From a bacterium (GTDB lineage Bacteria; Patescibacteriota; Patescibacteriia; JBAXGH01), in contig JBAXGH010000003.1 in the NCBI GenBank assembly GCA_037139515.1, forward strand, positions 12,800 through 76,799: a DNA stretch of 64,000 nucleotides. The letters run 5' to 3'. Shown one piece after another: positions 25,959 through 52,404 of the stretch. Every line of letters starts with the position of its first letter. Positions within the stretch are counted from its first letter, which is position 1. The notes beneath the pieces were generated by a model. That model had not been told where the DNA came from. It made no database searches and was given only the letters and a program-made list of their open reading frames with translations. The position numbers and the translations under genes are program-made.

Positions 25959-27824
25959 TTATTCTTGTATTAGTCCTCCGACGATGGCCTTGATTCTTCG
26001 AATTCCTGCCGAGCTCGCTTCTTCCTTCAATATCTTGAACGATTTTAGCTCACCGGTATGAGTCACGTGCGGCCCGCCGCAAATCTCTTTGGAGAAGCTT
26101 CCGATTGAATAGACCTTAACCTTATTTCCGTATTTATCCTCGAATAGGCCCATAGCACCATCTTTCTTAGCCTCTTCAACCGTCATTTCCTTGAAAGACA
26201 CTGGAAGGTCAAGCGCGATCTGCTCATTAACGATTTCTTCAACCCGCTTGAGCTGCTCCGGAGTAACCTTTGTCGGATTCGGGAAATCGAAGCGCAATCT
26301 TTCTTGTGTGATATTTGATCCTTTCTGCTCAACGTGGGTTCCGAGAACCTGACGCAGAGCCGCCTGCAACATGTGCGTTGCCGTATGAAGCATGGTCGAT
26401 TCACGCGAGTGATCAGCGAGACCTCCGGTGAATTTCTGTGCTGAACCGGAACGCGAGAGATCCTGGTGCTTCTTGAATTCGGCGTTAAAGGCTTCTTCAT
26501 CGACCTTCATCCCCTTTTCAGCGGCGAGTTCTTTGGTAAGTTCGAGCGGGAATCCGTAGGTTTGATATAAAAGAAACGCGTCTTCGCTCGTAAGCTTACC
26601 GGCATGCGCAAAAATCTTTTCAAATTCTTTTTCGCCGTTTTCAACGGTGACATTGAATTTTTCTTCTTCCGCGAACAGTTCTTTTAATATGTGCTCACGA
26701 CGAGTTTCGATTTCCGGGTAAACGTCTTTCATCAAATCGATATACATGGAGGCGACCTTACCGATGAAAGCGCCCTGCAAACCGAGAAGGCGCGCATGGC
26801 GAATAGCTCGACGAATAAATCGGCGCAAAACATAACCCTGCTCGACATTCGAAGGCACGACTCCGCGCGGGTCACCCAAAACAAAAGTGGCGGCGCGAAT
26901 ATGATCGGCGACAATTTCCATCGATTTCGTTGTCATCGAATCTGATCCGTATTTTTTGCCGGTGCTATCTTCGAGGAACTTGATTACCGGCGCGAAAATT
27001 TCAATTTCGAAAATAGATTTTTTTCCTTGGGTCATCGCAGTCAGTCGCTCAAGTCCCCAACCGACATCAACGTTCTTGTGTTCAAGCGGCACAAATTTGC
27101 CTTCCTGGTTTTTGTTGAATTCCATGAAGACATCATTTCCAATTTCGATGAAGCGGCCGCAATCACAATTCGGATGACAAAACTCACCGAACTTTTTATC
27201 GTGCGTCTTGCCGGTGTCATAAAAGATTTCAGTGTCCGGACCACATGGACCAGTTAAACCTGCCGGACCCCACCAGTTTTTTGATTTTGGATATTGGAAA
27301 ATACGATGACCGTCATCAATGTTCGGATTCTCAGCTGGAGCCAAAGTTGCATCAATGCCGACGCTCTTGAATTTCTCTTTCCAAATGCCTACCGATTCTT
27401 CATCACGAGGCGCATCTTCATTGCCCATGAATACACTCGTATATAGTCGCGACGGCTCAAAGCTCAACTCTTGAGTGAAAAATTCAAAAGTCCACGGAAT
27501 AATATCTTTCTTAAAATAATCTCCAAGCGACCAAATACCAAGCATTTCAAAAAACGTGGTGTGACGAGAATCGCCGACATCTTCGATATCCTGGGTACGA
27601 ATACATTTCTGCGAATTCGTAAGTCGAGTACCAGCGGGATGCTTCTCGCCGAGCAAATATGGAACGAGCGGATGCATACCGGCGGTTGTGAATAAAACCG
27701 TCGGATCATTTTCCGGAATCAAAGAAGCAGAAGGCAAAACGGCATGCATGTGGCCCTGAAAGAATTTTAGAAAACGCGAGCGAAGTTCTTTGGCAGTCAT
27801 AGTATTAGTTTTGTTTGTGTACAA
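25959..27824 (-). CDS. alaS: Alanine--tRNA ligase, short form (catalytic, tRNA-recognition and editing domains; no C-Ala domain)
   Basis: N-terminal class II AlaRS core (FTTAGMHP, QKCIRTQDIEDVG, FFEMLGIWSLGDYFK). The editing-domain HxxxH block is HTATHMLQAALRQVLG, with CGGPHV near the C-terminus. It is 621 aa against about 870 typical. Confidence 0.9.
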   Translation of the reverse strand: MYTNKTNTMTAKELRSRFLKFFQGHMHAVLPSASLIPENDPTVLFTTAGMHPLVPYLLGEKHPAGTRLTNSQKCIRTQDIEDVGDSRHTTFFEMLGIWSLGDYFKKDIIPWTFEFFTQELSFEPSRLYTSVFMGNEDAPRDEESVGIWKEKFKSVGIDATLAPAENPNIDDGHRIFQYPKSKNWWGPAGLTGPCGPDTEIFYDTGKTHDKKFGEFCHPNCDCGRFIEIGNDVFMEFNKNQEGKFVPLEHKNVDVGWGLERLTAMTQGKKSIFEIEIFAPVIKFLEDSTGKKYGSDSMTTKSMEIVADHIRAATFVLGDPRGVVPSNVEQGYVLRRFIRRAIRHARLLGLQGAFIGKVASMYIDLMKDVYPEIETRREHILKELFAEEEKFNVTVENGEKEFEKIFAHAGKLTSEDAFLLYQTYGFPLELTKELAAEKGMKVDEEAFNAEFKKHQDLSRSGSAQKFTGGLADHSRESTMLHTATHMLQAALRQVLGTHVEQKGSNITQERLRFDFPNPTKVTPEQLKRVEEIVNEQIALDLPVSFKEMTVEEAKKDGAMGLFEDKYGNKVKVYSIGSFSKEICGGPHVTHTGELKSFKILKEEASSAGIRRIKAIVGGLIQE

Positions 27825-28030: not shown

Positions 28031-29084
28031 TAATACCGCCACCCAGCACCTTTTCGCCTTCGTAGCAGACGACCGACTGTCCGACAGCTGGAGCCCACTC
28101 CGGCTCGTCAAAAACGATTCGATCTTTGAAGAGCGTGGCTGGCGCTAGCGGTTCGCGATAACGAATTCGCGCTTCGACCCGCATCCCATCATGAACGGCG
28201 CATAACCAGTGCTCATCAGCAATCCGAATCTCGCGTTTCAAGAGCGCGGGATCTTTTTTATCATCGGTAACCTTAATCGTATTCGTTGAGACATCACGGC
28301 CGCAAATATAATATTCGTGTTCAATTCCTAAATTCAAACCATGTCTTTGGCCAATCGTATAATATTGAACGCCATCATGTGTTCCGATAATTTTTCCGTT
28401 CATATCGATCACATTCCCCTGTTTTGGCTTGATACGAGTGGCTAAAAAATCATGCATTTTTACTTTTCCAACAAAACACAAACCCTGAGAATCTTTTTTC
28501 TCGGCGTTTGGTAGATCAGCTCGACGCGCAACTTCACGTAACTCAGGCTTGGTTAAATGACCAATCGGAAACAGGGTTTCGCGCAAAACTTCAGGCTTGA
28601 TGCGATATAGAAAATATGTCTGATCTTTATTCTGGTCGACAACTTTCATCAAATTCCCGTTTTTTGCCTGCGCATAGTGGCCCGTCGCAATAAAATCAGC
28701 ACCTAAACGCTTAGCCTCTTTATAAAAGGCATCAAACTTGATTTTTTCATTGCACATCACGTCCGGATTCGGAGTGTGGCCTCGGGAATACTCTCGGTCC
28801 ATGTATTCCACAACATCGCGCTGGTATTCGGCCTCGAAATCGAAAGTTAAGAACGGAATACCGAGCTTTGCTGCGACGCGCTCGGCGTCACGGCGTTCAC
28901 CGCGCCATTCGCACTCGCCGTTCGCATTTTTGGTTTCAGACCAGTTTTTCATGAAAACGCCGGTGACGTCATAACCTGCTTCGACCAATAAAAAAGCTGC
29001 AACGGAGCTATCAACTCCGCCGCTCATCGCCACAAAAACTTTTTGTTTATTTTCCGCCATCGATTTTTCGTGAATATTTTGCAT
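28020..29084 (-). CDS. mnmA: tRNA-specific 2-thiouridylase MnmA
   Basis: PP-loop VAMSGGVDSSVAA, catalytic Cys region (GLCFVGKV), and full-length MnmA similarity. The true start is probably the internal MAENKQK... (about 29060). Confidence 0.9.
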   Translation of the reverse strand: MQNIHEKSMAENKQKVFVAMSGGVDSSVAAFLLVEAGYDVTGVFMKNWSETKNANGECEWRGERRDAERVAAKLGIPFLTFDFEAEYQRDVVEYMDREYSRGHTPNPDVMCNEKIKFDAFYKEAKRLGADFIATGHYAQAKNGNLMKVVDQNKDQTYFLYRIKPEVLRETLFPIGHLTKPELREVARRADLPNAEKKDSQGLCFVGKVKMHDFLATRIKPKQGNVIDMNGKIIGTHDGVQYYTIGQRHGLNLGIEHEYYICGRDVSTNTIKVTDDKKDPALLKREIRIADEHWLCAVHDGMRVEARIRYREPLAPATLFKDRIVFDEPEWAPAVGQSVVCYEGEKVLGGGIITE

Positions 29085-30381
29085 TACAAGCAGCCTCTAT
29101 TGCTACGCGCTCACTCGCCCATTTTGGCTTATCGACACCAAGCGTAGAAGCTGAAAACGGATCGAAACGACGTCCTTTGATCGAAAGCTTAATATAGAAT
29201 TCCTGAGCCGGGAGATTAATCATGTCACGTAATTCAACCTGCGGCGAAAATTCTTTTTCAAGAAAAGCTGCATCTTCGGCGCTCACCTGGAAAGAAATCA
29301 AAGTCGCGACGTTTCCAAGCATCGAATGTTTGAGCGCCGGAGCGAGTTGCCCGAGATACTGATTTGAAGCCGTAATGCAGACACCATATCGACCAGCCTC
29401 GGAGAGAAGTGCAAGGAAAGAATCGGTTGCGACGTTCTGAAATTCATCAACGTAAAGATAATAATCCGCTCTCGTACCAGCCGCGTTCACACCACGGCGC
29501 AAAACTGCTCGCTTGAACATCGCGAGAAACAGCGAGCCAAAAATCGAGGCGTTGATATCGCCGAGCGCGCCTTTTGAAACCGTCACGAGCAAAATCTTGC
29601 CGTCACGAACTGCCGCTTCAATATCAATTTTGTTTTCGGCACCAGAAAATACGGCGTGCAAAGCCGGATGCGACAAAAACGATGTCAGCGTATTGATAAG
29701 CGCCGAAACCGCCGTACGATCTTCGGAAGTCGTCCAATTCACAAAATCATTCTGCCAAAAACGTTTGACCATGCCGTCCTGCACTACCTCCAATACCTTG
29801 GTTCGATATTCGGCGTTCGCGATAAAAGTCAAAAGATTCACAAAACTCGCTTCCGAATGGTCGAGGAGTGCGAGAAGCGCAAATCGAAGCAAATGCTCGG
29901 CGCGCGGATTCCACTGCGCTCCGAACAAACGAGAAAATACCTCTACAATGCCGGCGACCACGTGATGGCGCTCAGGAACAGGAATATTTGAAAGCGGATT
30001 CCAGGCGACAGGGTTTTTGTGATCAGAAGGATTCAAAACAATCACGTCGCCGATTCTTTCTTTGGGAATAAAATCAATCAAATCGTTAACCAGATCCCCG
30101 CTCGGATCGACAACGCAAATACCGTGACCATAATAAATATCGGAACGAATCAGATGTTCGAGCAATTTTGTCTTACCAACACCGGTTTTTCCGATGACAT
30201 ACATGTGGCGACGGCGATCCTCGCGCAAAACGCCAAAAACTTTGCGGTCATCACCAAGCCCGGCGCTTGAATTGGTCTCAGCGAAAAAACTGGCTTCGGC
30301 AGCCTCAGCGGCTTCCGGAGTTGGGATATTTTTCGGCGGCTCAACGTGACGAGCTATTTCCAGGTCATCAAACGATTCCAT
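29047..30381 (-). CDS. VirD4/TraG/TrwB-family (T4SS coupling-protein-like) P-loop ATPase without a transmembrane anchor
   Basis: Walker A VIGKTGVGKT and Walker B YLYVDEFQN. The T4CP-like SEAGRYGVCITASNQYLGQL block (R-x-Y-G ... Q-x-x-x-Q-L) is present, and the protein is paralogous to the upstream gene. Confidence 0.6.
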   Translation of the reverse strand: MESFDDLEIARHVEPPKNIPTPEAAEAAEASFFAETNSSAGLGDDRKVFGVLREDRRRHMYVIGKTGVGKTKLLEHLIRSDIYYGHGICVVDPSGDLVNDLIDFIPKERIGDVIVLNPSDHKNPVAWNPLSNIPVPERHHVVAGIVEVFSRLFGAQWNPRAEHLLRFALLALLDHSEASFVNLLTFIANAEYRTKVLEVVQDGMVKRFWQNDFVNWTTSEDRTAVSALINTLTSFLSHPALHAVFSGAENKIDIEAAVRDGKILLVTVSKGALGDINASIFGSLFLAMFKRAVLRRGVNAAGTRADYYLYVDEFQNVATDSFLALLSEAGRYGVCITASNQYLGQLAPALKHSMLGNVATLISFQVSAEDAAFLEKEFSPQVELRDMINLPAQEFYIKLSIKGRRFDPFSASTLGVDKPKWASERVAIEAACNAKYSRKIDGGK

Positions 30382-30415
30382 GAGACTTCAATTAGCCGAT
30401 TACGGCTTATTTATG

Positions 30416-32269
30416 TCACCACGGAAACACATTTGAGGACTTTTGTGAAGACTTGGCTGAAGTTTCAGGTTTTTTTGGTTCTGGAGCTGGGCTTTTTGGC
30501 GCAATTGCAGGGGTTTTTTCGTGAGGTACCGGTTTGTGGGCTACATGAGGCTTAGGAGCTGGAACCGGTTTTGCCGGAGCAGGCGCCTCGTCCTTTACGA
30601 TTCTAATCTTTCCACCAAACTCACCGTTTTGCCCTTTTGGGATAACTTTTAATGCCGGTTTTACATGAGAAACCGGTTTTGCAGGCAACGAAGATTTTAC
30701 CGGAGCTGCCACAGCTTTGCTCTCAACTTTCGCGGGCTTTGCGTCCTTCATTAGAGCCGACAATGAAACCGTTTCATTTGGCTTGGCTGGTTCCAGAGTC
30801 ACTTCGACACTTTCGATTCTTGGAGGTTTAACCGGAGTATGCGCAACGGGTGTTGGCTTCGTGAAGGCTGGAGCCGCATGCGCAACAGGAGTTGGCGGAT
30901 GTGGAATTGCAACAGGAGCTGCAGCAACAGGCTTAGCCGCCACAGGTCGCGACTCATCAACATAAGATTCGGACCACTGCACAATTTGCTTTTCAACCTC
31001 GGCACGATTCTTTGAATAAAGTCTACGACTTGTATTGATAATCAAATCCAAAAGTTCCGTACTCGGTTTGCCAAGCGGCGGAAGCGTATTTGCTGAAAAT
31101 GGCTTCGAAGTTACGCCGTCTATCAAAAGCTTCAGGTATATTTGATGATTTGGAATATTCACCAAATCTTCCGGCGTAAAGTCAGGCATGAATTCCGCTT
31201 CCATGAAAGTCGCATCATCAGTACCGACGCGGAAAGTCAGAATCGACCCGACATTGCCGAAGACCGCATCAGCAACTTCTTCTTCGAGCTGTTTGATGTA
31301 TTGATGTGCAACAATCAGATTTAAACGATACTTACGCGCCTCAGACAAGATATTTGCGAAAGATTCCGTGGCAAAGTTTTGGAACTCATCGACATACAGG
31401 TAAAAATCACGGCGATCAGCTTCCGGCATATCGACGCGTTCCATAGCCGCGAGCTGAATCTTCGTAATCAACATGCCGCCGAGAAGGCGTGAAGCATCTT
31501 CACCAATTCTGCCTTTGGAAAGGTTGATAACTACGATTTTTCCGGTATCCATGGCCTCGCGAATATCGAAAGTCGATTTCGTTTGCGCCACAATATTTCG
31601 GATAAGAGTCGACGACAAAAACTGTCCGACTTTATTCTGGATCGGAGCAATCGCCTCTTTTTGAAACTTCGGTTCCCAGCGTTCGAATTCATGAAGCCAA
31701 AATGATTTTACGACCGGATCCTTTACCGCGCTAATCACGATTCTTCGATAGTCTTTATCTGACAGCAAACGGTTGATACCGAGAAGGGTTGAATTCGGAT
31801 AATCCAAAAGCGCCAGAATACAGTTATTCATGATGTGTTCCATGCGGGCGCTCCAAACATCAGGCCAAATCTTCTTGAAAACGCCCATCAAACCGGCACC
31901 GATCAGGAATTTTTGTTCTTCTTTTTTCCATTCGAGCACATTGAACCCAACCGGATGCTCAATATCAGCCGGGTTCACGTAAATAACGTCATTCTTGCGC
32001 CATTCAGGCACGAAACCGATAATCTTTTCCGAGAAATCACCATGCGGATCGACGAGCGCCAAACCGTGACCGTTCTGAATATCCTGATACATCAGGTTTT
32101 CGAGCAGCGTAGTTTTTCCGGTGCCGCTTTTTCCGAGAACATACATGTGACGGCGACGATCTTCGGTCTTGATACCGAATCTGCGCAATTGATTACGAAA
32201 ATTAGTGGCCGCGAAAAGCGTTACTTCGTTCGGATGCACGTTCAGGTAATGATCTTTGAAATCCATCAT
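30416..32269 (-). CDS. VirD4/TraG/TrwB-family (T4CP-like) P-loop ATPase with a long Pro/Ala/Lys/Val-rich disordered C-terminal tail
   Basis: Walker A VLGKSGTGKT, Walker B FYLYVDEFQN, and SEARKYRLNLIVAHQYIKQL. The last ~170 aa are low-complexity PAxKPV repeats (coordinates about 30416-30950). Confidence 0.6.
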   Translation of the reverse strand: MMDFKDHYLNVHPNEVTLFAATNFRNQLRRFGIKTEDRRRHMYVLGKSGTGKTTLLENLMYQDIQNGHGLALVDPHGDFSEKIIGFVPEWRKNDVIYVNPADIEHPVGFNVLEWKKEEQKFLIGAGLMGVFKKIWPDVWSARMEHIMNNCILALLDYPNSTLLGINRLLSDKDYRRIVISAVKDPVVKSFWLHEFERWEPKFQKEAIAPIQNKVGQFLSSTLIRNIVAQTKSTFDIREAMDTGKIVVINLSKGRIGEDASRLLGGMLITKIQLAAMERVDMPEADRRDFYLYVDEFQNFATESFANILSEARKYRLNLIVAHQYIKQLEEEVADAVFGNVGSILTFRVGTDDATFMEAEFMPDFTPEDLVNIPNHQIYLKLLIDGVTSKPFSANTLPPLGKPSTELLDLIINTSRRLYSKNRAEVEKQIVQWSESYVDESRPVAAKPVAAAPVAIPHPPTPVAHAAPAFTKPTPVAHTPVKPPRIESVEVTLEPAKPNETVSLSALMKDAKPAKVESKAVAAPVKSSLPAKPVSHVKPALKVIPKGQNGEFGGKIRIVKDEAPAPAKPVPAPKPHVAHKPVPHEKTPAIAPKSPAPEPKKPETSAKSSQKSSNVFPW

Positions 32270-32275
32270 AGGTTT

Positions 32276-33835
32276 TTATACGAAAGGAAGATTTTCAGGG
32301 ACTTCTTGCGACGGTTCTTCGTGACCACCGTGGCCACCGCCATGTGATTCTTGTTTCGGTTCCGGAGATCCGTGCGCCGCCGCATCTTTAATCTGAGACG
32401 GGAAAAGCATATCTTCGCGGAACGGTACATTCGACGGCGGTTCTGAGCGCTTAGCCTCAATCTTGCGAAGCAAAGGCGACTTAATCAGCGCCGTCGGGAA
32501 ATGCCAAAGAGTCGCGAGTTCTTCCGTGCACATTATGTACGGCGCGGCGGCGGTTCCGATAGAACGTCCGCGGAAATTCGAGAACATATTCATGGTACGA
32601 ATCGGGGCCGGACGATAAAAACCAAACGTCAGATAATACGACCAGATTCCCTTGTGCCAAGAATAATCTGATTTTATCGCCGACGGCCAGTGACGCCCAA
32701 AACTGTTCAAGTTATGCGAAGCAAACCCAGCTAATGCCGCCGATAACTCGCTCAAACGCGCACCTCCCTTTCCGGCACCCTTGGGAGCAAGATAGGCCGC
32801 ACGCATCTTGGTCTTGAAGCCAACCTTAGATGCTTTCATCGAAAGGCCGTCGAGTGCTTCTTTTTCGAGTGGCGTAAAAGCCATTTTTACAGTTTTTTCG
32901 TCTTTTTTTACTTCTGATCCCTTCGCACCAAAAAATGTGTGAACTACAAGTTCCACCATATTATAGGCCTCGCTCACAAAAAGCTTGATGAGACCCGGAG
33001 CGTGTTTTTCTTCTTTAACAGGAATGCCAGCGATTTTTGCAATCAAGGCTTCAGAAGTCTTCTTCCATTCACTGTCAGCAGGTGTTATGGCGAGCTGAAA
33101 ACTCAATAGCTCACCCTGACCGAGTTTGTTCATGACTTCAATTACATGTGCGAGCGGATCCTTGAATTCACCAATCAGCTTATCCTCAAAAAAAGGCCAA
33201 GTTCTGATTGGATAATTATCTTTATTGGTCATGACAAACTCCGTTCCCGCCATGTCGTACTCCTCATTCGGCCATTTTCGCGGATAGGCATCAACATAGT
33301 CTTCGACCTGCTGGATTTCGGCAAGCGGATACTCGCTATAAACGGCAGCTTCCACCAAATCCCTAATTTTATCGCGACATCGAATATAGTAATGAATATG
33401 CCCCTCATGCGAGACAATTTCAAAAGACATTCGATTCGGTCCCCAGCCTTTAACATATTTCGGAATAAATTGAGGCTTTCCACCAGTACCCCAGACCATT
33501 GCGAAAATATTTTCAATAGCCTTTGGTGATTGTTCATTCAGGCGCGGAACTTCAACATTCAGCAAGATATAAGTTTGAGCGTGCTCCCACTTCTCTTCGA
33601 GCCATTCAACCCAAAGATGCTCAATCGTAACAATCGAAAATACCACTACGATTATCCAGCCGCCGTTCAAAAACAAAAACCAGCCGGCCGAAATTGGGTT
33701 CGTCGAATGAGCTGGCATCTCGTTTAAGACGCCCAATACGTGCTGGTACAGCGCATTTAAGAAATCTAGAATAAACATAGTTGACTCAAGACTTACGGCT
33801 AAAAATTGCGGTAAAACATTAAATTTATAACGCAT
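32276..33835 (-). CDS. Membrane-anchored hypothetical protein, first gene of the ATPase module
   Basis: N-terminal hydrophobic segment (GWFLFLNGGWIIVVVFSIVTI), a large soluble domain, and a Gly/His-rich C-terminus (HGGGHGGHEE). It ends 7 bp before the downstream ATPase gene. Confidence 0.45.
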   Translation of the reverse strand: MRYKFNVLPQFLAVSLESTMFILDFLNALYQHVLGVLNEMPAHSTNPISAGWFLFLNGGWIIVVVFSIVTIEHLWVEWLEEKWEHAQTYILLNVEVPRLNEQSPKAIENIFAMVWGTGGKPQFIPKYVKGWGPNRMSFEIVSHEGHIHYYIRCRDKIRDLVEAAVYSEYPLAEIQQVEDYVDAYPRKWPNEEYDMAGTEFVMTNKDNYPIRTWPFFEDKLIGEFKDPLAHVIEVMNKLGQGELLSFQLAITPADSEWKKTSEALIAKIAGIPVKEEKHAPGLIKLFVSEAYNMVELVVHTFFGAKGSEVKKDEKTVKMAFTPLEKEALDGLSMKASKVGFKTKMRAAYLAPKGAGKGGARLSELSAALAGFASHNLNSFGRHWPSAIKSDYSWHKGIWSYYLTFGFYRPAPIRTMNMFSNFRGRSIGTAAAPYIMCTEELATLWHFPTALIKSPLLRKIEAKRSEPPSNVPFREDMLFPSQIKDAAAHGSPEPKQESHGGGHGGHEEPSQEVPENLPFV

Positions 33836-33922
33836 TTATTATAGCACACGCAAAAACGGAAAAATATCACCGCTTGACTGCGGACTGATTTTTAGCTTAT
33901 ATTGCTAATCAAGGAGGCCATA

Positions 33923-34366
33923 ATGTCAGGGGAAAAGAAGCTTTCCGACGTACCCGTCATCATCAACAAAGTTCCGAAAAATGGTTCAAAGACAGCCCAT
34001 GAAGCATTGGAGCGCGTTCTCGATACCTTTGCGTGCTCGATTGATAGACATGGTGTGCATTGGATCGCGAAGCCCGAACACGCCGCGCGAAAGAATGAGC
34101 ACGGCACTATCTCAACGCTCTACATCAAGCTACACGCATTGCATCGCGGTCACGCAGTGCGCTATGTCTTCGATGAAAGCGGAAAAGCAGAACTCTGCAC
34201 GAGGTCCGGACCTCAAATCCAGTTCTCTTGGCTTGAGGCACTGGAGCATGCCCGCAAGATCATCTGCGACGAGCTCCGCAGTACCAAGATTGAAGAAGGG
34301 CAAGAGCCGAACACCGAAGATCGCCTTCTCGAGCTCAGAAAGTTCGAGGACATGCAATTCATCTAG
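33923..34366 (+). CDS. Hypothetical protein
   Basis: AAGGAGG Shine-Dalgarno upstream of an ATG at 33923 (the track ORF begins earlier, at 33902). No homology recognised; followed by an intrinsic terminator. Confidence 0.4.
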   Translation: MSGEKKLSDVPVIINKVPKNGSKTAHEALERVLDTFACSIDRHGVHWIAKPEHAARKNEHGTISTLYIKLHALHRGHAVRYVFDESGKAELCTRSGPQIQFSWLEALEHARKIICDELRSTKIEEGQEPNTEDRLLELRKFEDMQFI

Positions 34367-34439: not shown

Positions 34440-35342
34440 CTAACGCTTTTTCTGCCAATCGACAATGAGAGGAGTTGCAAGGAAGATAGATGAATATGTA
34501 CCGGATGCGGCGCCGATGATAAGCGCGAGTGCGAACGACTTGGTTGAATCTCCGCCGAACAGGAAAATAGCAACGAGAGACAAGATGACAGTCATCGAAG
34601 TGTTGATGGAACGAACCGCCGTTTGGCGAATCGAAACGTCGACAATTTCGGCGACGGTACCGGAAGTCTTGGTCATGTTTTCGCGAACACGGTCGAATAC
34701 CACGATGGTATCATTAATCGAATAACCAAGAATCGTAAGGATTGCAGCCACGAATGCGCCGGTAACTTCAAGGTTAGTATAGTGGCCGAGAACCGCAAAG
34801 ACGCCGATTGGAATAATGGCATCATGAACGCCGGCTAAAACCACGAGCACACCATATTTCCAGGCTTCGATACGACCACTCACCTTTCGGAAAGCCCAGG
34901 CGATATACAGACAGATGAGGAGAAGCGTAAAGAAGACGGCCCAAAGTGCCTTGGAACGAAGTTCGGCACTAATCGAAGGTCCGACGGTTTCAAAACGGAC
35001 TTCATTCGAATCCGTCCACTGCTTTTTGATGGCAGCCGTAAGAGCGGCGTGCTTAGTCGAATCAAGTTCGGCCGTTCTAAGAATAACTCCTCTTTCGGTC
35101 GTAACGATGCCAGCATCAACGCCAACCGTCTTGGCAGCAGCAACAACTTCGCTCGAAATCGGGGAATTCGCCATTGAATACTCAACGAGCGAGCCGCCGG
35201 TAAATTCGATGCCGAGCTTAAGTCCCCAGGTCATGAAAGCGAAAATCGAAAGCACTACGGCGATTCCGGAAAGGGCGTACCAATATTTTCTGATCGTAAC
35301 TACGTTCATAGAAGTTATTTTTTCTTGGCGCCGTAGAGCCAT
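34440..35342 (-). CDS. secF: Protein-export membrane protein SecF
   Basis: Six-TM SecF with the characteristic GIEFTGG block near the N-terminal periplasmic loop; overlaps secD. Confidence 0.9.
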   Translation of the reverse strand: MALRRQEKITSMNVVTIRKYWYALSGIAVVLSIFAFMTWGLKLGIEFTGGSLVEYSMANSPISSEVVAAAKTVGVDAGIVTTERGVILRTAELDSTKHAALTAAIKKQWTDSNEVRFETVGPSISAELRSKALWAVFFTLLLICLYIAWAFRKVSGRIEAWKYGVLVVLAGVHDAIIPIGVFAVLGHYTNLEVTGAFVAAILTILGYSINDTIVVFDRVRENMTKTSGTVAEIVDVSIRQTAVRSINTSMTVILSLVAIFLFGGDSTKSFALALIIGAASGTYSSIFLATPLIVDWQKKR

Positions 35343-37345
35343 TCTTTTTTAGCGAATTCGAAGCCGGAAACGAAGCGGAGAATTGAACGGGTCACGGTAA
35401 TCGCCGAGAACATCGAAACGATAACACCGATTGCGAGCGTCAGAGCGAAACCCTTAATAACCGAGGAGGTGAAATAGAAGAGCACAAAAGCGGCAAAGAG
35501 AGTTGTGATGTTGCCGTCCCAAATACTCGACCAAGCACGGTTGAAGCCTTCGTCGATTGCGCTAAGCAACGATCGTCCGAGACGCAATTCCTCGCGCATA
35601 CGCTCGAAAATCAACACGTTTGCATCGACTGCCATACCTACGGTTACAACGAAACCAGCAATACCGGAAAGCGAAAGCGTAACCGGGAAAAGTTTATAGA
35701 TGGCGAGCACAACGCTCGTATAGAAGAGAAGCGAGATGACCGAAATCACACCCGGCAAGCGATAGAAAAGAATCATGAAGAGTGCGACGAGCAGGAACGC
35801 AACAGTCGCAGCCTTCATCGACTTTTCCAAATCGGCGGCACCGAGCGTCGGACCGATTGTCGATTGCGAAACCAGCTTAATCGGCACCGGCAAGGCACCG
35901 GCGTTCAAGCGACGTGCCAAAGTCTTCGCGGTTTCGATCGAGAAGTTGCCGGTAATTTGCGCTGATCCGCCATCGATTTCTTGCTGGACAACAGGGGCAC
36001 TGATTTCTTTTCCGTCCAGGAAAATCGCAATCTGTTTACCGACCCAAGCTTTCGTGAGTTCGGCGAATTTCTTTCCACCTTCAGCTGAGAACTTCAAAGA
36101 AACCTGAGGTTCGCCGGTACGAGAATCAAACTGAACCGTAGCGGATTCCAAATCCTTACCGGAAAGATTGGTATTTTCCCAAGGGTCGGACGCGTTAATA
36201 ATGCCTGCCGTTTTCGCGATTTTAATAACAGATAATTTATATTCAGGCAAAATCACGTTCGGGCGTGAACCGGACTTCAAAATCAGGTGATAACCAAAAT
36301 CGGTAAGAACCGGTTCTTTAGTGATGGTATTCACGTACATCGGGCGAACCGCGGTTGCGAACGAATCAACCATTGTAACCGGGAAGAACCAACCCAAGCT
36401 TCCACCGGAATTAACAGCGCCTGGCTCGGTTGAGTTTTCAGAAGCAAACTTGGCAAAATTTGCCGGTGTGAGCTGTGGAACCAAAGCTTTAATCTTCGCG
36501 TAAGCTTCTTCCTTGGTTGTTTCTTTATCGCAATTCGAGGCGCCCTTGAAACAAATCAAGATATGCGAAGCCTGAACCTCGCGCTCGGTGCGTCGGATAT
36601 CATCAACCTTAACAATCCAATACGCATCTTTAGTTTCGATGAGCTTCGGCATGAGCTCGCCCTTCCAAGCGTTCTGACTCGTGATTTCCTGAACAACTTC
36701 GGAATAGGCCGCGGTCATTTTATTTACGAATACTGTCTCACCACCCTTTTCTTTGGTGGCCGCGTCTTCGGAAACTTCTTTAGCAACCGTCGCAAAAACT
36801 TCACGCTTTACTTTTACGCGATCCAAAGCGGCTTCAGCTTTTTTGAGAGAAGCAGCGTTAGCTTCGTCAGTCGCCTTTTTATCAATCTGTGCATCCGGTG
36901 ACTTCGGTGTCTTGAATTCCAAAACCGGAGTTTCGCCAATTTGCTTAATAGCTGATTCAACATCGGAAACACCAGCGAGTTCTACATTAATACGCGAAAC
37001 GCCACCGGCTGAAGCCGTTTCAACAAGAGGTTCAGCGACGCCAAAAGCATTCACACGACGTTCGATAACGTCTCGGGTACCGAGAAGAGCTTCGGTTTGA
37101 TCCTTAGAAGGAATTTTTGAAAGGTCAGCTTCGTAAATCAAATTCGCGCCACCCTTCAAGTCTAAGCCGAGACGAAATGGCACGTCCCAATAATCACTGA
37201 TTCCGAGATGAGCCGAGCGAGCCGCGCCGGCCATAACATTCCAAGCTTTCGGATAATTCAAAAAACCTGTGAATAAAAACACCACTACAAGTGCACCGAG
37301 GGTCATGTATAACTTCCGGCGTGAGGACGTTTGCGGCTGGGCCAT
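35315..37345 (-). CDS. secD: Protein-export membrane protein SecD carrying an inserted parvulin-type (PpiC) peptidyl-prolyl isomerase domain
   Basis: SecD blocks are present (LGLDLKGGANLIYEADL, and the C-terminal SecDF TM bundle with AVDANVLIFERMREE). In the periplasmic region there is a PpiC/parvulin signature: ASHILICFKG ... GGSLGWFFPVTMVDSFATAV ... GYHLILK. Confidence 0.85.
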   Translation of the reverse strand: MAQPQTSSRRKLYMTLGALVVVFLFTGFLNYPKAWNVMAGAARSAHLGISDYWDVPFRLGLDLKGGANLIYEADLSKIPSKDQTEALLGTRDVIERRVNAFGVAEPLVETASAGGVSRINVELAGVSDVESAIKQIGETPVLEFKTPKSPDAQIDKKATDEANAASLKKAEAALDRVKVKREVFATVAKEVSEDAATKEKGGETVFVNKMTAAYSEVVQEITSQNAWKGELMPKLIETKDAYWIVKVDDIRRTEREVQASHILICFKGASNCDKETTKEEAYAKIKALVPQLTPANFAKFASENSTEPGAVNSGGSLGWFFPVTMVDSFATAVRPMYVNTITKEPVLTDFGYHLILKSGSRPNVILPEYKLSVIKIAKTAGIINASDPWENTNLSGKDLESATVQFDSRTGEPQVSLKFSAEGGKKFAELTKAWVGKQIAIFLDGKEISAPVVQQEIDGGSAQITGNFSIETAKTLARRLNAGALPVPIKLVSQSTIGPTLGAADLEKSMKAATVAFLLVALFMILFYRLPGVISVISLLFYTSVVLAIYKLFPVTLSLSGIAGFVVTVGMAVDANVLIFERMREELRLGRSLLSAIDEGFNRAWSSIWDGNITTLFAAFVLFYFTSSVIKGFALTLAIGVIVSMFSAITVTRSILRFVSGFEFAKKEWLYGAKKK

Positions 37346-47523: not shown

Positions 47524-48117
47524 TTAGTCGTCGTGGTATTCGATGAGGCAGAAAGAGCCTTGGGTCAGCTGGCCCGGCTGTTCACCGAGCAAAAGCTTGA
47601 AGCGCGTGAGCGGATTCGCGAAATGCAGACGAAGCGCCGTACCGTGCCCAACGATGACCGGAACCGTTTCCTGGCTCGCGAGAGCATCACGATGAACCCG
47701 ATGGAAACCATCTTGATACCGCTTGCGCACCTGGTCAGCATTCTCCCCACCGATCTGGGTGAAGTCGAAGCCGTCCGAACTCGTTCGATAGCATTCCTCA
47801 GGGAAACGCTCGTGCGCGGTCCCCTTGGTAAGACCGGCCATCTTCCCAATGTCGACTTCTCCAAACTTGGCCTCTTGAATTACCCGCGAACCAGTCTGGA
47901 ACGAAATCAGATTTCCGGTGCGCAACGAACGAATCAGAATCGAAGTCCAAACAGTACCAGCGCGACAGTTGTCGATTCCGGCGATTGCCCGCCCAAGCGC
48001 GCTCGCCTGCATTTCCCCCTTGGCATTCAAATCAACGTCTTGAATGCCGCTGTAGATTCGCTTGGCGTTGTTGTCAGTCTCGCAATGCCTCGTGATGATC
48101 ATGCGTGTTTTTCGCAT
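47524..48117 (-). CDS. Histidine phosphatase superfamily (phosphoglycerate mutase-like) protein
   Basis: IITRHCETDNN is the RHGE(S/T)xxN catalytic motif. The start is taken at MRKTRMII (the track ORF extends to 48177). Confidence 0.7.
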   Translation of the reverse strand: MRKTRMIITRHCETDNNAKRIYSGIQDVDLNAKGEMQASALGRAIAGIDNCRAGTVWTSILIRSLRTGNLISFQTGSRVIQEAKFGEVDIGKMAGLTKGTAHERFPEECYRTSSDGFDFTQIGGENADQVRKRYQDGFHRVHRDALASQETVPVIVGHGTALRLHFANPLTRFKLLLGEQPGQLTQGSFCLIEYHDD

Positions 48118-48255
48118 GTCTTTCTCCTCTCCTGTGTGGGATTCTCGGAATTTAGCAAAATAAGAACGATTTAGCAACAGGCTCTATACTTAGGCAAAAA
48201 AATCCGGCCTGACTGCGAGGTGCAGCCTGGCCGGGTGAAACTTGGGCGCTTCGGA

Positions 48256-48603
48256 TTACACAATCGCGTGATGGACGACGCCGTCCCTGCACACGCAGAG
48301 CAGCATCCGCACATGAACCTGGGTACACCAGCTCATGTGCTTTTTTGTGTATTCATCGACGATCTTCGCGACCTTTTCCCTGACGGCCGCGGGCGCATCA
48401 GTTGGCATCCGAGCATCAAGGTCAAGGTCGATGAAGACCGTGAGCTTCGTAGCACCAGAGTACTCGGAAAGAACATGCACGCAAACTTCCGGCTTGAATT
48501 CCGGAGTGCTGAGGCATTGCTGCATGGCATCTTCCAGGCTATGCCGAAGTGCGCGCTGTTCTCCGGCTGACGGCAAACCGTAAACGCGAATCACAACCGC
48601 CAT
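48256..48603 (-). CDS. Hypothetical protein
   Basis: 115 aa in the GC-rich island; no family recognised. Confidence 0.35.
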   Translation of the reverse strand: MAVVIRVYGLPSAGEQRALRHSLEDAMQQCLSTPEFKPEVCVHVLSEYSGATKLTVFIDLDLDARMPTDAPAAVREKVAKIVDEYTKKHMSWCTQVHVRMLLCVCRDGVVHHAIV

Positions 48604-48621
48604 CTTCGCCTCCTTCCGCCG

Positions 48622-49176
48622 CTACGGAACTTGAATCCGCTTGGCCTTGTCGATGTTCACGGTACCGCGGTACAGAACATGCGGCACGAGATGATATCGC
48701 CGAAACTTGTCTCCCACTTTCAGGCTTCGGAAATACGCCCGGGCGGCTTCGGGGAGAGTCTTTCCGTAGGCTACAAGCGCTCCCGACGTGTACGGCACGA
48801 ATTCGTCGTCCGAGAACTCCTCTTCATTCGCGTTCGGAGCCTTGGAGTAGACGAAGATTTCGAGCTTCTTCGGATCGAAGTGCCGCGTGTCGATTTCGAA
48901 GAAATCGCGCGGGAAAGGCTTTCCGGTATGCGCGACCTCCTCCCAGATCTCAAAAGGGTGAACTGGGCAGAAGTGCAGAACATCGTTCCAGAGGCAGTTG
49001 CCGAGCGCCTTGATATGCCGACGCATGAGCCACTCACGATCGTTCTGATCCTCAATTGGAAGGTACTTCGCAAGCGCTTTTGCGTGAGCGTCAGGCGCTA
49101 CTTTGAGTAGCTCATTCAGCGGAATCAGCTCTTTGCCGACCATTTCCGACGGAACCTCATGGTAAAGAGAAGCCAT
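48622..49176 (-). CDS. Hypothetical protein
   Basis: 184 aa in the GC-rich island; no family recognised. Many overlapping antisense ORFs here are compositional artefacts. Confidence 0.4.
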   Translation of the reverse strand: MASLYHEVPSEMVGKELIPLNELLKVAPDAHAKALAKYLPIEDQNDREWLMRRHIKALGNCLWNDVLHFCPVHPFEIWEEVAHTGKPFPRDFFEIDTRHFDPKKLEIFVYSKAPNANEEEFSDDEFVPYTSGALVAYGKTLPEAARAYFRSLKVGDKFRRYHLVPHVLYRGTVNIDKAKRIQVP

Positions 49177-49330
49177 GTTACACCTCGCTTTCTACCTGCT
49201 TGTCCGGGCGGAATCATATGTAATTTTCAGCGAAATGTCAATAATCGCTCACAGACTTGACAAAATCGCGATTTTTAGCTTAAATACGAGGCGGATAACC
49301 TTTACCAAAACCCCCGAAGGGAGGCCGAAA

Positions 49331-49906
49331 ATGCCGCGTTCATTCAAGCTTTACATGTTCCGTGAAAGTCAGGTGGGGGTCGAGCCATACCAATACTCGC
49401 TTTCACCCCATGGTTTCAACCTGGCACGCCAAATCGGCGGCCGCTACCTGAAGGATTGCGATTTCACCGATTTCATCATACCGGGGACGCTGCGTTGCAT
49501 GCAGACCCTAGGCGCCATGAGCGAAGGTGCCAAAGACTGGACAACGGGTTTGATTCGGCACGAACCCAAGCTCCTTAGCCGGAAGCACAAAGAGCTGAAG
49601 GAACTCATCAGCGAGATTGAGAGCGACAACCTCAATGTTCTCATGAGGTCGGAGCCGAAGCTTTTCAAGGCGTTCCAGACCGAACTCATCGTCACGCTCT
49701 GGAAGACACTGCGCGAGATGAAGATTGAGACCGATAGCAGAGTCTTGATGATTGTCCACGACGCGCAAGCCGAGAGCATCGTGGAGGCGCTCACGGAAAA
49801 GGTCATCGACCCGCTCAAGCACTGCGAGGGGTTGATGCTCAACATGAGCTACTCCTTCTGGCGAATCGACGCCACGAAGTTCCCAACAGAGTTTCGAAGC
49901 ACCTGA
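49331..49906 (+). CDS. Hypothetical protein (possibly a degenerate histidine-phosphatase-like fold)
   Basis: A GGGAGG Shine-Dalgarno sits 9 nt upstream of the ATG at 49331. LYMFRESQ and IVHDAQAESIVEAL loosely echo RHGE and the second-His blocks of histidine phosphatases, but the catalytic residues are not conserved. Confidence 0.4.
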   Translation: MPRSFKLYMFRESQVGVEPYQYSLSPHGFNLARQIGGRYLKDCDFTDFIIPGTLRCMQTLGAMSEGAKDWTTGLIRHEPKLLSRKHKELKELISEIESDNLNVLMRSEPKLFKAFQTELIVTLWKTLREMKIETDSRVLMIVHDAQAESIVEALTEKVIDPLKHCEGLMLNMSYSFWRIDATKFPTEFRST

Positions 49907-50024
49907 ACCAGCCCACCCCGCACGAAGCCCCCGGTCCAACTCGGATCTGGGGCTCTTTATTTACAAATAAAATATCCCGCCGAAGCACGAGGCCGCAGCG
50001 GGGAGAAGCACGGTCGAAGGAGCG

Positions 50025-50585
50025 CTACTGCACATTCATCTCCGCCGCATCGAAGAGTCGCGTAAAATAACTCGCGAATCTGCGGATGATGCGTTCAGCG
50101 TCGGAGCGCGAAATCGGATAGCCGGCGGGCGTGACTTCGACACCGAGAAGGGACTTCCAAAGCCAGTCAAAAGTCCCGTTTTTTCTTTCGATGTGAGCGC
50201 GCCAGGGATCCTCGACGGGCTCTGCCACGGAATCGTCCAGGATATCCCAGCCGACGCCGATCAGGTCGCACTCCGTCCCGATTGGCTTTCCACAGCCCAG
50301 GCTCACAAAAACACCGGTCGAGCCGTCTTCAGAATCGGGGTTCACCTCGCCATAGACGCAAATCTTGTATTCGCCCTTCCTGACTTCGTAAAGGACGGTT
50401 GAATGTAGCTCGAAGTCGGGTGTGAGCTTGGCGCAGGAAAATTCGTCAACAAGCCCAACCTGCTCGTTCGTGCCTGGCACTGCGCTATTTGCATAAGGTC
50501 CAATCCGCACACCCTCCGAGCGAAGAATTTCGAAGACCTTCTGGAGATTCTTTGAAACCCGGTCCCAGTCTTCACGGCCATTCAT
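50025..50585 (-). CDS. Hypothetical protein
   Basis: 186 aa, acidic; no family recognised. Confidence 0.4.
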   Translation of the reverse strand: MNGREDWDRVSKNLQKVFEILRSEGVRIGPYANSAVPGTNEQVGLVDEFSCAKLTPDFELHSTVLYEVRKGEYKICVYGEVNPDSEDGSTGVFVSLGCGKPIGTECDLIGVGWDILDDSVAEPVEDPWRAHIERKNGTFDWLWKSLLGVEVTPAGYPISRSDAERIIRRFASYFTRLFDAAEMNVQ

Positions 50586-50740
50586 CGATACCTCCTTTGT
50601 CCACGAGAAAATTACGGTTTTTCCGGGGTTGTGTCAAATTAAGGACAGCGCACCTGACCGCCTTGACAAAATACTCCTTTTTGCATAGGTTGACCCAGTC
50701 CGCTGTTCGCTAGTTCACTGACAACGAAAGGAGTTTCCCC

Positions 50741-52363: not shown

Positions 52364-52404
52364 CCGTACGGCTGGTTTTTTATTAAACGAAGATGCGCAA
52401 TGAT

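Follow-up and report, generated by a model that had tools for sequence, protein, structure and literature searches.

A conserved gene pair of a DUF8128 membrane protein and a TrwB/VirD4-like ATPase in Patescibacteria: a candidate split, membrane-tethered motor

Introduction

Patescibacteria, which are host-dependent and have genomes of about 1 Mb, contribute a large part of bacterial diversity. In the genome of one of them, three adjacent open reading frames (ORFs) encode a membrane protein and two ATPases that resemble type IV coupling proteins (T4CPs), and they stand among housekeeping genes. What do coupling-protein-like ATPases do at such a site? The locus lies in a 64,000-nt stretch of DNA, here called the window (Patescibacteriota, JBAXGH01; assembly GCA_037139515.1, contig JBAXGH010000003.1, positions 12,800-76,799 of the forward strand); all coordinates refer to this stretch. 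The original prediction, made from the sequence, had taken the three genes for one module and a stripped-down, stand-alone device for the translocation of DNA or protein. Here we report that the conserved unit is a pair of two genes rather than three, namely a DUF8128 membrane protein and the 617-aa ATPase, and that this pair is a vertically inherited chromosomal core feature of Patescibacteria, at least of the classes ABY1 and Paceibacteria.

Results

The two ATPases belong to the TrwB/VirD4 family

The three minus-strand ORFs were confirmed at the positions given in Table 1. The 444-aa and the 617-aa ATPase are paralogues (37% identity over 386 aa, E=5e-97). The motifs that had been read in them are present in both proteins: Walker A, the Walker B sequence YLYVDEFQN and the R-x-Y...Q-Y-x-x-Q-L signature, which occurs in the forms RKY...AHQYIKQL and RYG...SNQYLGQL. 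Profile searches placed both in the TrwB family rather than with HerA/FtsK only. TrwB_AAD_bind scored 58.0 bits on the 444-aa and 46.4 bits on the 617-aa ATPase (Pfam cutoff 20.5), T4SS-DNA_transf scored 32.7 and 25.8 bits on the two (cutoff 20.1), and the 617-aa ATPase also matched the Pfam families TraG-D_C and DUF87. The DUF87 match (33.5 bits) was marginally above its cutoff and nested in the stronger TrwB-family matches; HerA_C reached 11 bits. The FtsK_SpoIIIE profile remained below its cutoff of 24 on both ATPases (11.5 and 12.4 bits), as did the VirB4-type profiles AAA_10 (11.1 bits, cutoff 27.5) and P-loop_TraG (11.3 bits, cutoff 25.8). No NurA-like gene was found among the window neighbours. 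The top sequence matches of the ATPases in the PDB were TrwB and DotL and, together with the model of a fused paralogue described below (TM-score to TrwB ~0.65), these results uphold the view that the ATPases are paralogous and coupling-protein-like.

The ATPases had also been predicted to lack transmembrane (TM) helices. Indeed, neither contains a hydrophobic 19-mer above a Kyte-Doolittle value of 1.6 (maxima 1.02 and 1.39). NCBIfam matches to TraD, CedD, CedB and VirB4 were rejected as local P-loop matches far below the cutoffs, and a TIGR00929 match was likewise local. The PADLOC mad8 profile matched both ATPases (E=4e-17 and 9e-15). An assignment to mad8 was rejected as well: the match reflects generic ATPase homology, DUF8128 and the neighbouring genes gave no defence hits, and the neighbours are housekeeping genes. 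In the NCBI/JGI annotation the window ATPases are named T4SS DNA-binding-domain or VirD4 proteins (T4SS, type IV secretion system), and they are therefore almost certainly included in the T4CP homologues counted in Patescibacteria by Quiñonero-Coronel et al. (2025, PMC12102498).

DUF8128 and the 617-aa ATPase form a conserved gene pair

The membrane protein was identified as DUF8128 (PF26449) through an identical public protein (P0001), which carries this precomputed tag together with 75 of 84 homologues. In the public annotation it begins at the second ATG, and this shorter form is favoured because a TATAAT sequence lies just 5' of the first ATG. The protein had been described as 519 aa long with an N-terminal TM segment and a Gly/His-rich tail; the segment and the tail, which holds HGGGHGGH, were both recovered, and the start that yields 500 aa is the likelier one. 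An N-terminal TM segment is found in 78 of the 84 homologues. All named DUF8128 homologues come from metagenome-assembled genomes (MAGs) of Patescibacteria. In a scan with one genome per species, at least 578 species genomes carried DUF8128, and among 1.84 billion representatives the profile matched 3,945 clusters (50% identity) at E<=1e-3 and 1,251 at E<=1e-30. We found no paper that mentions this family.

Synteny was compared in 80 species-level loci, 75 of which could be evaluated for ATPase adjacency and 62 for SecF. An orthologue of the 617-aa ATPase directly follows DUF8128 on the same strand in 65 of the 75 genomes. In 50 of the 62, SecF is encoded upstream in the same orientation, and mnmA and alaS often occur further downstream. 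The ATPase of the pair has a median identity to the window protein of 63.7% (68 genomes), which is above the medians of its neighbours SecD (47.2%), SecF (44.2%), MnmA (44.5%) and AlaS (52.4%). The median identity of the window DUF8128 across species is 33.9%.

In a neighbour-joining tree the ATPases fell into three classes. Group A adjoins DUF8128 and includes the 617-aa protein, group B consists of soluble proteins of ~480-500 aa, and group C comprises fusions of DUF8128 with an ATPase. None of 120 group-B relatives has an N-terminal TM segment. The second ATPase in tandem is confined to the window and the related loci L038, L050 and L088, whose group-A proteins form one clade, and the third gene is missing from the locus in about 60 of the 65 genomes that have the pair. 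Conservation across related genomes thus holds for the pair and not for the trio. The 444-type ATPase is a separate, anchorless class that is usually encoded elsewhere, for example by dnaJ, and the three-gene module of the original prediction had to be given up.

In the Paceibacteria-type loci L086 (1-9630) and L087 (3316-9556), group B stands next to dnaJ and near dnaK. Here, groups A and B are 2-3 kb apart with rsmE between them and dnaJ after B; in L086, dnaK precedes the group-A ATPase. A 568-aa protein encoded after the group-A gene of L086 was considered as a DUF8128 protein and rejected (hhalign 0.1%).

The C-terminal tails of the group-A orthologues are variable, with a median length of 198 aa. 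Most are rich in Pro, Ala, Lys and Glu, contain two CxxC motifs and have KPGQxI[KR]F at the end; a treble-clef zinc finger is usually present. The tails in L086 and L087 match the Pfam family zf_Tbcl_2 (examples of group-A genes: L012:5006-6763 and L086:1692-4109). A [VI]FPW ending is found instead in the window, L088, L038 and L050, which are exactly the lineages with a tandem group-B gene; the zinc finger is absent from the tails of the window and L088 ATPases.

Many of the genomes with the module were deposited as 'uncultured Gammaproteobacteria', 'Candidatus Binatia' or 'Acutalibacteraceae' (L008, L012, L018, L020, L023 and others). These names are probably submission artefacts, since the secDF-DUF8128-ATPase-mnmA-alaS synteny and the identities match Patescibacteria.

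A fused paralogue joins both parts in one polypeptide

Locus L052 encodes an 856-aa fusion. Its residues 42-417 correspond to DUF8128 (hhalign to the family profile 99.7%, E=3.5e-26), and a TrwB_AAD_bind ATPase occupies residues 433-785. The fusion family comprises more than 120 clusters (90% identity) of ~850 aa each, all with PF26449 and PF10412. Its neighbourhood reads uvrB-dus-corA-small ORF-fusion-dnaX...uvrD-rmuC. A tblastn search of the window with the fusion paralogue found no additional copy. In both loci examined (L089:8409-8990 and L090:8414-8935), the small ORF directly 5' of the fusion codes for 173-193 aa, has no Pfam hit and is a possible added partner.

An N-terminal TM segment is present in 118 of 120 fusions, and an Arg/Lys-rich stretch follows the helix in the two N-termini that were read. 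As the ATPase must be cytoplasmic, the globular domain of DUF8128 should be cytoplasmic too. The occurrence of fusions and the adjacency in 65 of 75 genomes strongly support DUF8128 as the anchor of the ATPase, in line with the earlier suggestion that the upstream protein supplies it.

The fusions also revealed a motif, [PA]Px[NDE][LIVM]P, located 38-49 residues before Walker A in 99 of 120 fusions and in 108 of 120 group-B proteins. It is absent from the 72 group-A ATPases. Within stand-alone DUF8128 proteins it lies in the last 12 residues (54/84, 52/86 and 86/142). This distribution indicates that the group-A pair corresponds to the fused architecture cut just past the motif, and that group B is a 'headless' form that kept it. 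The terminal peptide of the window DUF8128, VPENLPFV, may therefore be a docking peptide for the ATPase.

In Foldseek, the predicted structure of the fused paralogue (mean pLDDT 84.4, pTM 0.68) gave an alignment of 900-960 columns with full-length TrwK/VirB4 (E=1e-14, probability 1.0). The ATPase half of the model was placed on TrwB (TrwBdeltaN70) with TMt 0.62-0.67, a root-mean-square deviation of ~5 Å, ~430 columns and 17% identity; HerA, DotL and Cagβ were further Foldseek matches after TrwB. Seven helices between Walker A and Walker B form an all-alpha domain within the nucleotide-binding domain (NBD). According to this model the motor would be of the coupling-protein type, and the overall layout, a membrane-associated N-terminal domain followed by a motor, would be that of VirB4.

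A possible resemblance of the DUF8128 model to the N-terminal part of VirB4

An AlphaFold2 model of DUF8128 (mean pLDDT 81.8, pTM 0.75) consists of an N-terminal helical segment, an alpha/beta domain and a disordered tail. When the model was compared with the PDB by Foldseek, the top twelve matches were all TrwK/VirB4 chains of plasmid R388 (best E=8.7e-5, probability 1.0). In BFVD, which holds predicted structures of viral proteins, the model matched gp156 of phage G (2e-16), proteins of phages JL and Slash, and gp155 of phage G (5e-6). The kinship of the DUF8128 N-domain with VirB4 would thus be visible in structure only, through Foldseek probabilities and colinearity.

Relatives are encoded by large Bacillus phages

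The phage family phrog_5156 (824 positions) matched the 617-aa ATPase at positions 405-809 (E=4.7e-61) and DUF8128 at positions 78-285 (E=2.2e-13); the 444-aa ATPase matched it with E=5.5e-39. ATPase relatives were found in 44 phage genomes, mostly of large Bacillus phages. A tblastn search of 50,697 phage genomes with DUF8128 gave no match, and the phage link of this domain comes from profiles and structure.

In phage G, gp156 (825 aa) has a DUF8128-like N-domain (hhalign 97.7%) and no TM helix. It adjoins gp155, a VirB4-like ATPase with P-loop_TraG and AAA_10 domains (L091:90859-93336 and 89194-90843). The annotation of gp156 and several relatives as 'MsbA-like lipid A export permease' looks like a misannotation. 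In phage SPO1, gp27.4 (L092:92636-95356) is directly upstream of gp27.3, a Replic_Relax nickase. The match of the gp27.4 N-domain to DUF8128 was weak (68.7%) and was not relied on. Pathria et al. (2012, PMC3357382) described a 'DNA translocation operon' in phages 0305φ8-36 and SPO1, which includes a relaxase, a VirD4-like coupling ATPase without TM helices and separate membrane-binding proteins, and which is dispensable in the laboratory.

Gene layout and surroundings

The features of the locus are listed in Table 1. Between the DUF8128 stop and the start of the 617-aa ATPase 6 nt were measured, in place of the 7 bp given before; 34 nt separate the two ATPase genes. The neighbours alaS, mnmA and secDF were verified by tblastn to loci with genes carrying those Pfam families, and reading of the translations added rpsD/K/M, infA, glmS and xth. 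The ten largest other ORFs of the window encode ClpB, PriA, GltX, G6PD and polysaccharide-synthesis proteins, among others. No VirB4, VirB6 or relaxase was found among these ten, as predicted, and no integrase either. The GC content of the module (0.470) is that of the window (0.477). With its housekeeping synteny, native GC content and no integrase or relaxase found, the locus does not lie on an integrated conjugative element.

No tRNA and no Rfam family was detected in the window, and promoter and terminator scans performed no better than on shuffled sequence. A strong hairpin at 29023-28999 was dismissed, since it falls in the conserved segment of mnmA that encodes SGGVDSS. A plus-strand ORF of 154 aa (33902-34366), with a promoter-like site just upstream (33874-33903), fills the 600 bp that separate secF from DUF8128. 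Searches against Pfam, NCBIfam and PHROG and by tblastn against the 85 related loci gave no match for it; this ORF is an orphan of the lineage or no gene at all.

Table 1. Positions of the DUF8128-ATPase locus and its sequence features in the window.
Feature	Position	Strand	Basis or remark
DUF8128 (PF26449) membrane adaptor	32276..33835	-	maximal ORF, 519 aa; likelier annotated start 33778, 500 aa
Single N-terminal hydrophobic (TM) segment of DUF8128, aa 47-79 of the 519-aa ORF	33599..33697	-	19-residue Kyte-Doolittle maximum 2.32
First PPxN[LIV]P copy (EPPSNVPF), end of the DUF8128 globular domain	32420..32443	-	motif reading
Second motif copy (VPENLPFV), extreme C-terminus of DUF8128, after the Gly/His-rich linker	32279..32302	-	motif reading
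617-aa TrwB/VirD4-like ATPase, group A	30416..32269	-	ORF
Motor domain of the 617-aa ATPase (aa 1-430), conserved DUF8128 partner	30980..32269	-	Pfam, synteny
Walker A GKSGTGKT, 617-aa ATPase (aa 46)	32111..32134	-	motif reading
Walker B FYLYVDEFQN, 617-aa ATPase	31376..31405	-	motif reading
C-terminal tail of the 617-aa ATPase, ~197 aa, probably disordered, Pro/Ala/Lys/Val-rich, ends NVFPW	30416..30979	-	composition P36 A30 K25 V23
444-aa anchorless TrwB/VirD4-like ATPase, long-branch group-B member	29047..30381	-	Pfam, neighbour-joining tree
EPPKNIPTP, N-terminal region of the 444-aa ATPase (aa 14-22), same linker motif	30316..30342	-	motif reading
Walker A GKTGVGKT, 444-aa ATPase (aa 64)	30169..30192	-	motif reading
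secD-secF, conserved upstream synteny partner, context only	34440..37345	-	Pfam of orthologous genes

Some further features of the window were noted. SecD (676 aa, 35315-37345, minus strand) contains an inserted PpiC-type rotamase domain. In the orthologues of L001 and L004 a Rotamase domain is annotated between SecD_1st and SecDF_P1_head. Such a SecD-foldase fusion is unusual for a Sec accessory protein and appears to be common in these genomes. Bacterial AlaS proteins typically have ~870 aa. The window AlaS (25959-27824, minus strand) has just 621 aa and a TTG start; as the L001 annotation gives the same length, this short form is conserved. The region 48000-52400 has a GC content of 0.53-0.54, compared with ~0.47 elsewhere, and could be a foreign or unusual segment. 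A 540-aa ORF in it (50741-52363, plus strand) has no Pfam hit and overlaps long ORFs of the opposite strand.

Discussion

Proposed architecture and mechanism

The reading that we favour, at somewhat better than even chances, is that the pair encodes an NTPase that is divided between two proteins, tethered to the membrane and part of the VirB4/VirD4 branch of the FtsK-HerA superfamily, and that works with a T4SS by the mechanism outlined below. Our confidence in the architecture is higher than in this reading as a whole, and our confidence in the role is lower. DUF8128 would provide a single TM helix, an alpha/beta domain in the cytoplasm that folds like the VirB4 N-domain, and a flexible tail with the PPxN[LI]P peptide at its end. 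The 617-aa protein would contribute a TrwB-like motor, with NBD and all-alpha domain, and a long disordered C-terminal tail. By analogy to TrwB and VirB4, a motor hexamer may be held by DUF8128 at the cytoplasmic face of the membrane, where the C-terminal peptide of DUF8128 would occupy the site that the motif of the fused paralogues holds in cis. The motor would use ATP hydrolysis to drive a macromolecule across or to gate its passage. The variable tail of the ATPase, like the tails of T4CPs, would serve to bring in substrate or partners. The 444-aa ATPase keeps the linker motif in cis, and may be a soluble accessory or take part in mixed rings.

Comparison with known systems

The ATPases share with the T4CPs TrwB, VirD4, TraD/TraG and DotL the NBD with an inserted all-alpha domain, the Pfam families and a variable C-terminal tail, as in TraD and DotL. 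An N-terminal TM domain is found in most T4CPs and is required in TrwB, PcfC and MobB (PMC7431656); the window ATPases lack it, and the anchor is a separate protein. T4CPs are cargo of plasmids and integrative and conjugative elements and are linked to relaxase or VirB genes. The window genes, in contrast, are vertically inherited core genes, they belong to three ancient paralogue classes, and no such linkage was found in the window or around the module in ~85 related loci.

With VirB4 (TrwK) the pair would have in common a membrane-associated N-terminal domain that precedes a RecA-like motor, here divided between two polypeptides. The window motor, however, scores as VirD4-type, the identity is 10-11%, and no VirB3, VirB6 or VirB8 genes are nearby. 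VirB3-VirB4 fusions provide a precedent for shuffling of the VirB4 N-terminal region. Another precedent is TrsD, a separate protein with remote homology to the N-terminal portion of VirB4 (PMC12102498).

The phage coupling ATPases (orf201 of 0305phi8-36, SPO1 gp27.4, phage G gp156) are VirD4-like, lack TM helices and have a large non-TM N-domain. In their case, too, the authors argued that a separate protein must give membrane attachment. The phage proteins (22-29% identity) are single chains encoded beside a nickase or a VirB4-like ATPase; the window version is chromosomal and highly conserved, comes as two proteins with a membrane anchor and lacks a neighbouring nickase. The fused patescibacterial paralogue (for example P0205) comes from the same phylum and sometimes from the same locus (L052), and agrees in domain order, PPxN[LI]P linker and N-terminal TM segment. 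It differs in being one polypeptide in another neighbourhood, with an ATPase that is 41% and a DUF8128 part that is ~22% identical to the window proteins. HerA and FtsK-SpoIIIE belong to the same P-loop superfamily, and HerA structures were among the Foldseek matches. The window ATPases differ from them in lacking a NurA partner and the FtsK gamma domain and in their clearly higher TrwB-family scores.

The ATPases as such are already catalogued: Quiñonero-Coronel et al. (2025) reported orphan coupling-protein homologues, almost certainly these among them, and the statement that this is not a described system holds for the DUF8128 partnership and not for the orphan VirD4-type homologues. In the literature that we found, this partnership, the split, fused and headless classes, the linker motif, the VirB4-like fold of DUF8128, the secDF synteny and the phage relatives of the module appear to be undescribed.

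Role of the pair and alternative explanations

As to its role, the pair could be the otherwise missing coupling or energising ATPase of the chromosomal T4SS of this phylum, a proposal that we make with low confidence. The link is suggested by the patescibacterial T4SS loci, most of which have no T4CP nearby: of 5,713 VirD4-type T4CP homologues in Patescibacteria, 148 are near virB4 (PMC12102498). In line with this, Wang et al. (2023) found no recognisable coupling protein at the T4SS locus of Southlakia. One carrier of the module, GCA_004297215 (class ABY1), is entered as VirB4-positive in PMC12102498. The substrate is perhaps somewhat likelier to be DNA than protein, as the phage relatives stand by a nickase or a VirB4-like ATPase and the fusion is near dnaX, uvrB, uvrD and rmuC. 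The secDF and dnaK/dnaJ contexts could equally hint at a protein substrate.

Several observations weigh against this reading. T4CP homologues occur in more genomes than VirB4 does (2,918 and 2,417 of 3,035 Patescibacteria genomes, or 96% and 80%; PMC12102498), and in Southlakia the T4CP homologue is non-essential whereas the T4SS is essential (PMC12102498). No T4SS genes are linked to the module in ~85 related loci. DUF8128 has no adjacent ATPase in 10 of the 75 genomes, and L086 and L087 have a group-A ATPase with no adjacent DUF8128. In the window DUF8128, acidic rather than basic residues follow the TM segment. The DUF8128 profile found no match among PDB sequences even at E=10, hhalign gave no alignment of it with the VirB4-like gp155 of phage G, and the global TM-scores of its model to VirB4 are low (~0.3). 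The structure used for the ATPase is itself a predicted model of a paralogue that is 41% identical to the window 617-aa protein.

Some of these points would suit a motor of the same architecture that works independently of any T4SS, as a housekeeping membrane translocase or remodelling motor in which T4CP homology reflects ancestry only. Such a motor might act on DNA at the membrane (segregation, uptake or repair-coupled export) or in protein and envelope traffic with SecDF and DnaK/DnaJ. We rate this explanation as the lesser possibility, though one to be taken seriously. The excess of T4CP homologues over VirB4, their number of about two per genome and their rare proximity to virB4 would be expected from it, as would the dispensable homologue of Southlakia and a group-A identity above that of SecD, SecF, MnmA and AlaS. 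The same is true of the conserved housekeeping neighbourhoods, with secDF for group A, dnaK/dnaJ for groups A and B in L086 and L087, and dnaX/uvrB/uvrD/rmuC for group C. However, gene order in reduced genomes need not reflect function, and mnmA and alaS are conserved nearby as well; the incompleteness of MAGs inflates the number of VirB4-negative genomes; and no TrwB/VirD4 member is known to function without a T4SS-type or conjugative partner (general T4CP knowledge; PMC7431656). The similarity of the DUF8128 fold to the VirB4 N-domain moreover suggests docking on VirB3/VirB8-type partners. A bolder variant, which we consider doubtful, is that the DUF8128/TrwB-like ATPases, in their split, fused and headless forms, represent a third lineage beside VirB4 and VirD4 that had escaped notice, in which a VirB4-type N-domain was kept on a VirD4-type motor and which in Patescibacteria would work as an ancient, near-universal, T4SS-independent membrane translocase.

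The idea of a self-contained three-gene device with one anchor and two motors fits the tight arrangement of the trio on one strand with its short gaps, its recurrence in L038, L050 and L088, and the two copies of the docking motif in the window DUF8128. It is nevertheless improbable in view of the many pair loci that lack the third gene and of the 444-aa class, which is normally unlinked and has its own motif in cis. The module also includes no polytopic channel protein, and with a single-TM DUF8128 the pore must come from elsewhere. The evidence does not support a stand-alone device either: most Patescibacteria have a chromosomal VirB4-based T4SS elsewhere in the genome (2,417 of 3,035 genomes; PMC12102498). 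Far less credible still is the view that the module descends from a mobile element or phage, as a domesticated or decaying remnant, or that it is an anti-phage defence ATPase of the HerA/MADS-like kind. The Bacillus phage relatives (phrog_5156, phage G gp156, SPO1 gp27.4) and the mad8 profile match could be cited for it, but intact Walker motifs and very strong purifying selection (64% identity across classes) speak against it. The pair occupies the same chromosomal position in dozens of species genomes and has native GC content, and the ten largest other window ORFs include neither an integrase nor a relaxase. Neither further MADS genes nor other defence components turned up, and DUF8128 gave no match in PADLOC.

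Implications for Patescibacteria

On the preferred reading of a split, membrane-tethered motor, a structural role is assigned to a DUF family of ~4,000 clusters, and the hypotheses that follow are testable: tethering by a peptide, a hexamer at the membrane and recruitment of substrate by the tail. The split motor is among the most conserved proteins of its neighbourhood. In evolutionary terms it may link the two ATPase types of type IV secretion, VirB4 and VirD4, with related proteins in large Bacillus phages. If the DUF8128/TrwB-like ATPases were indeed a third lineage, they might, for example, exchange DNA or protein with the host or take part in envelope biogenesis alongside SecDF, and coupling proteins would have arisen from a VirB4-like ancestor by loss of the N-domain. 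Patescibacteria have retained about two coupling-protein-like ATPases per genome, and the sole published remark on their purpose is that exaptation of the T4CP homologues was not ruled out (PMC12102498). As shown here, these ATPases fall into three old classes, in which the motor is split from DUF8128, is fused to it or lacks it.

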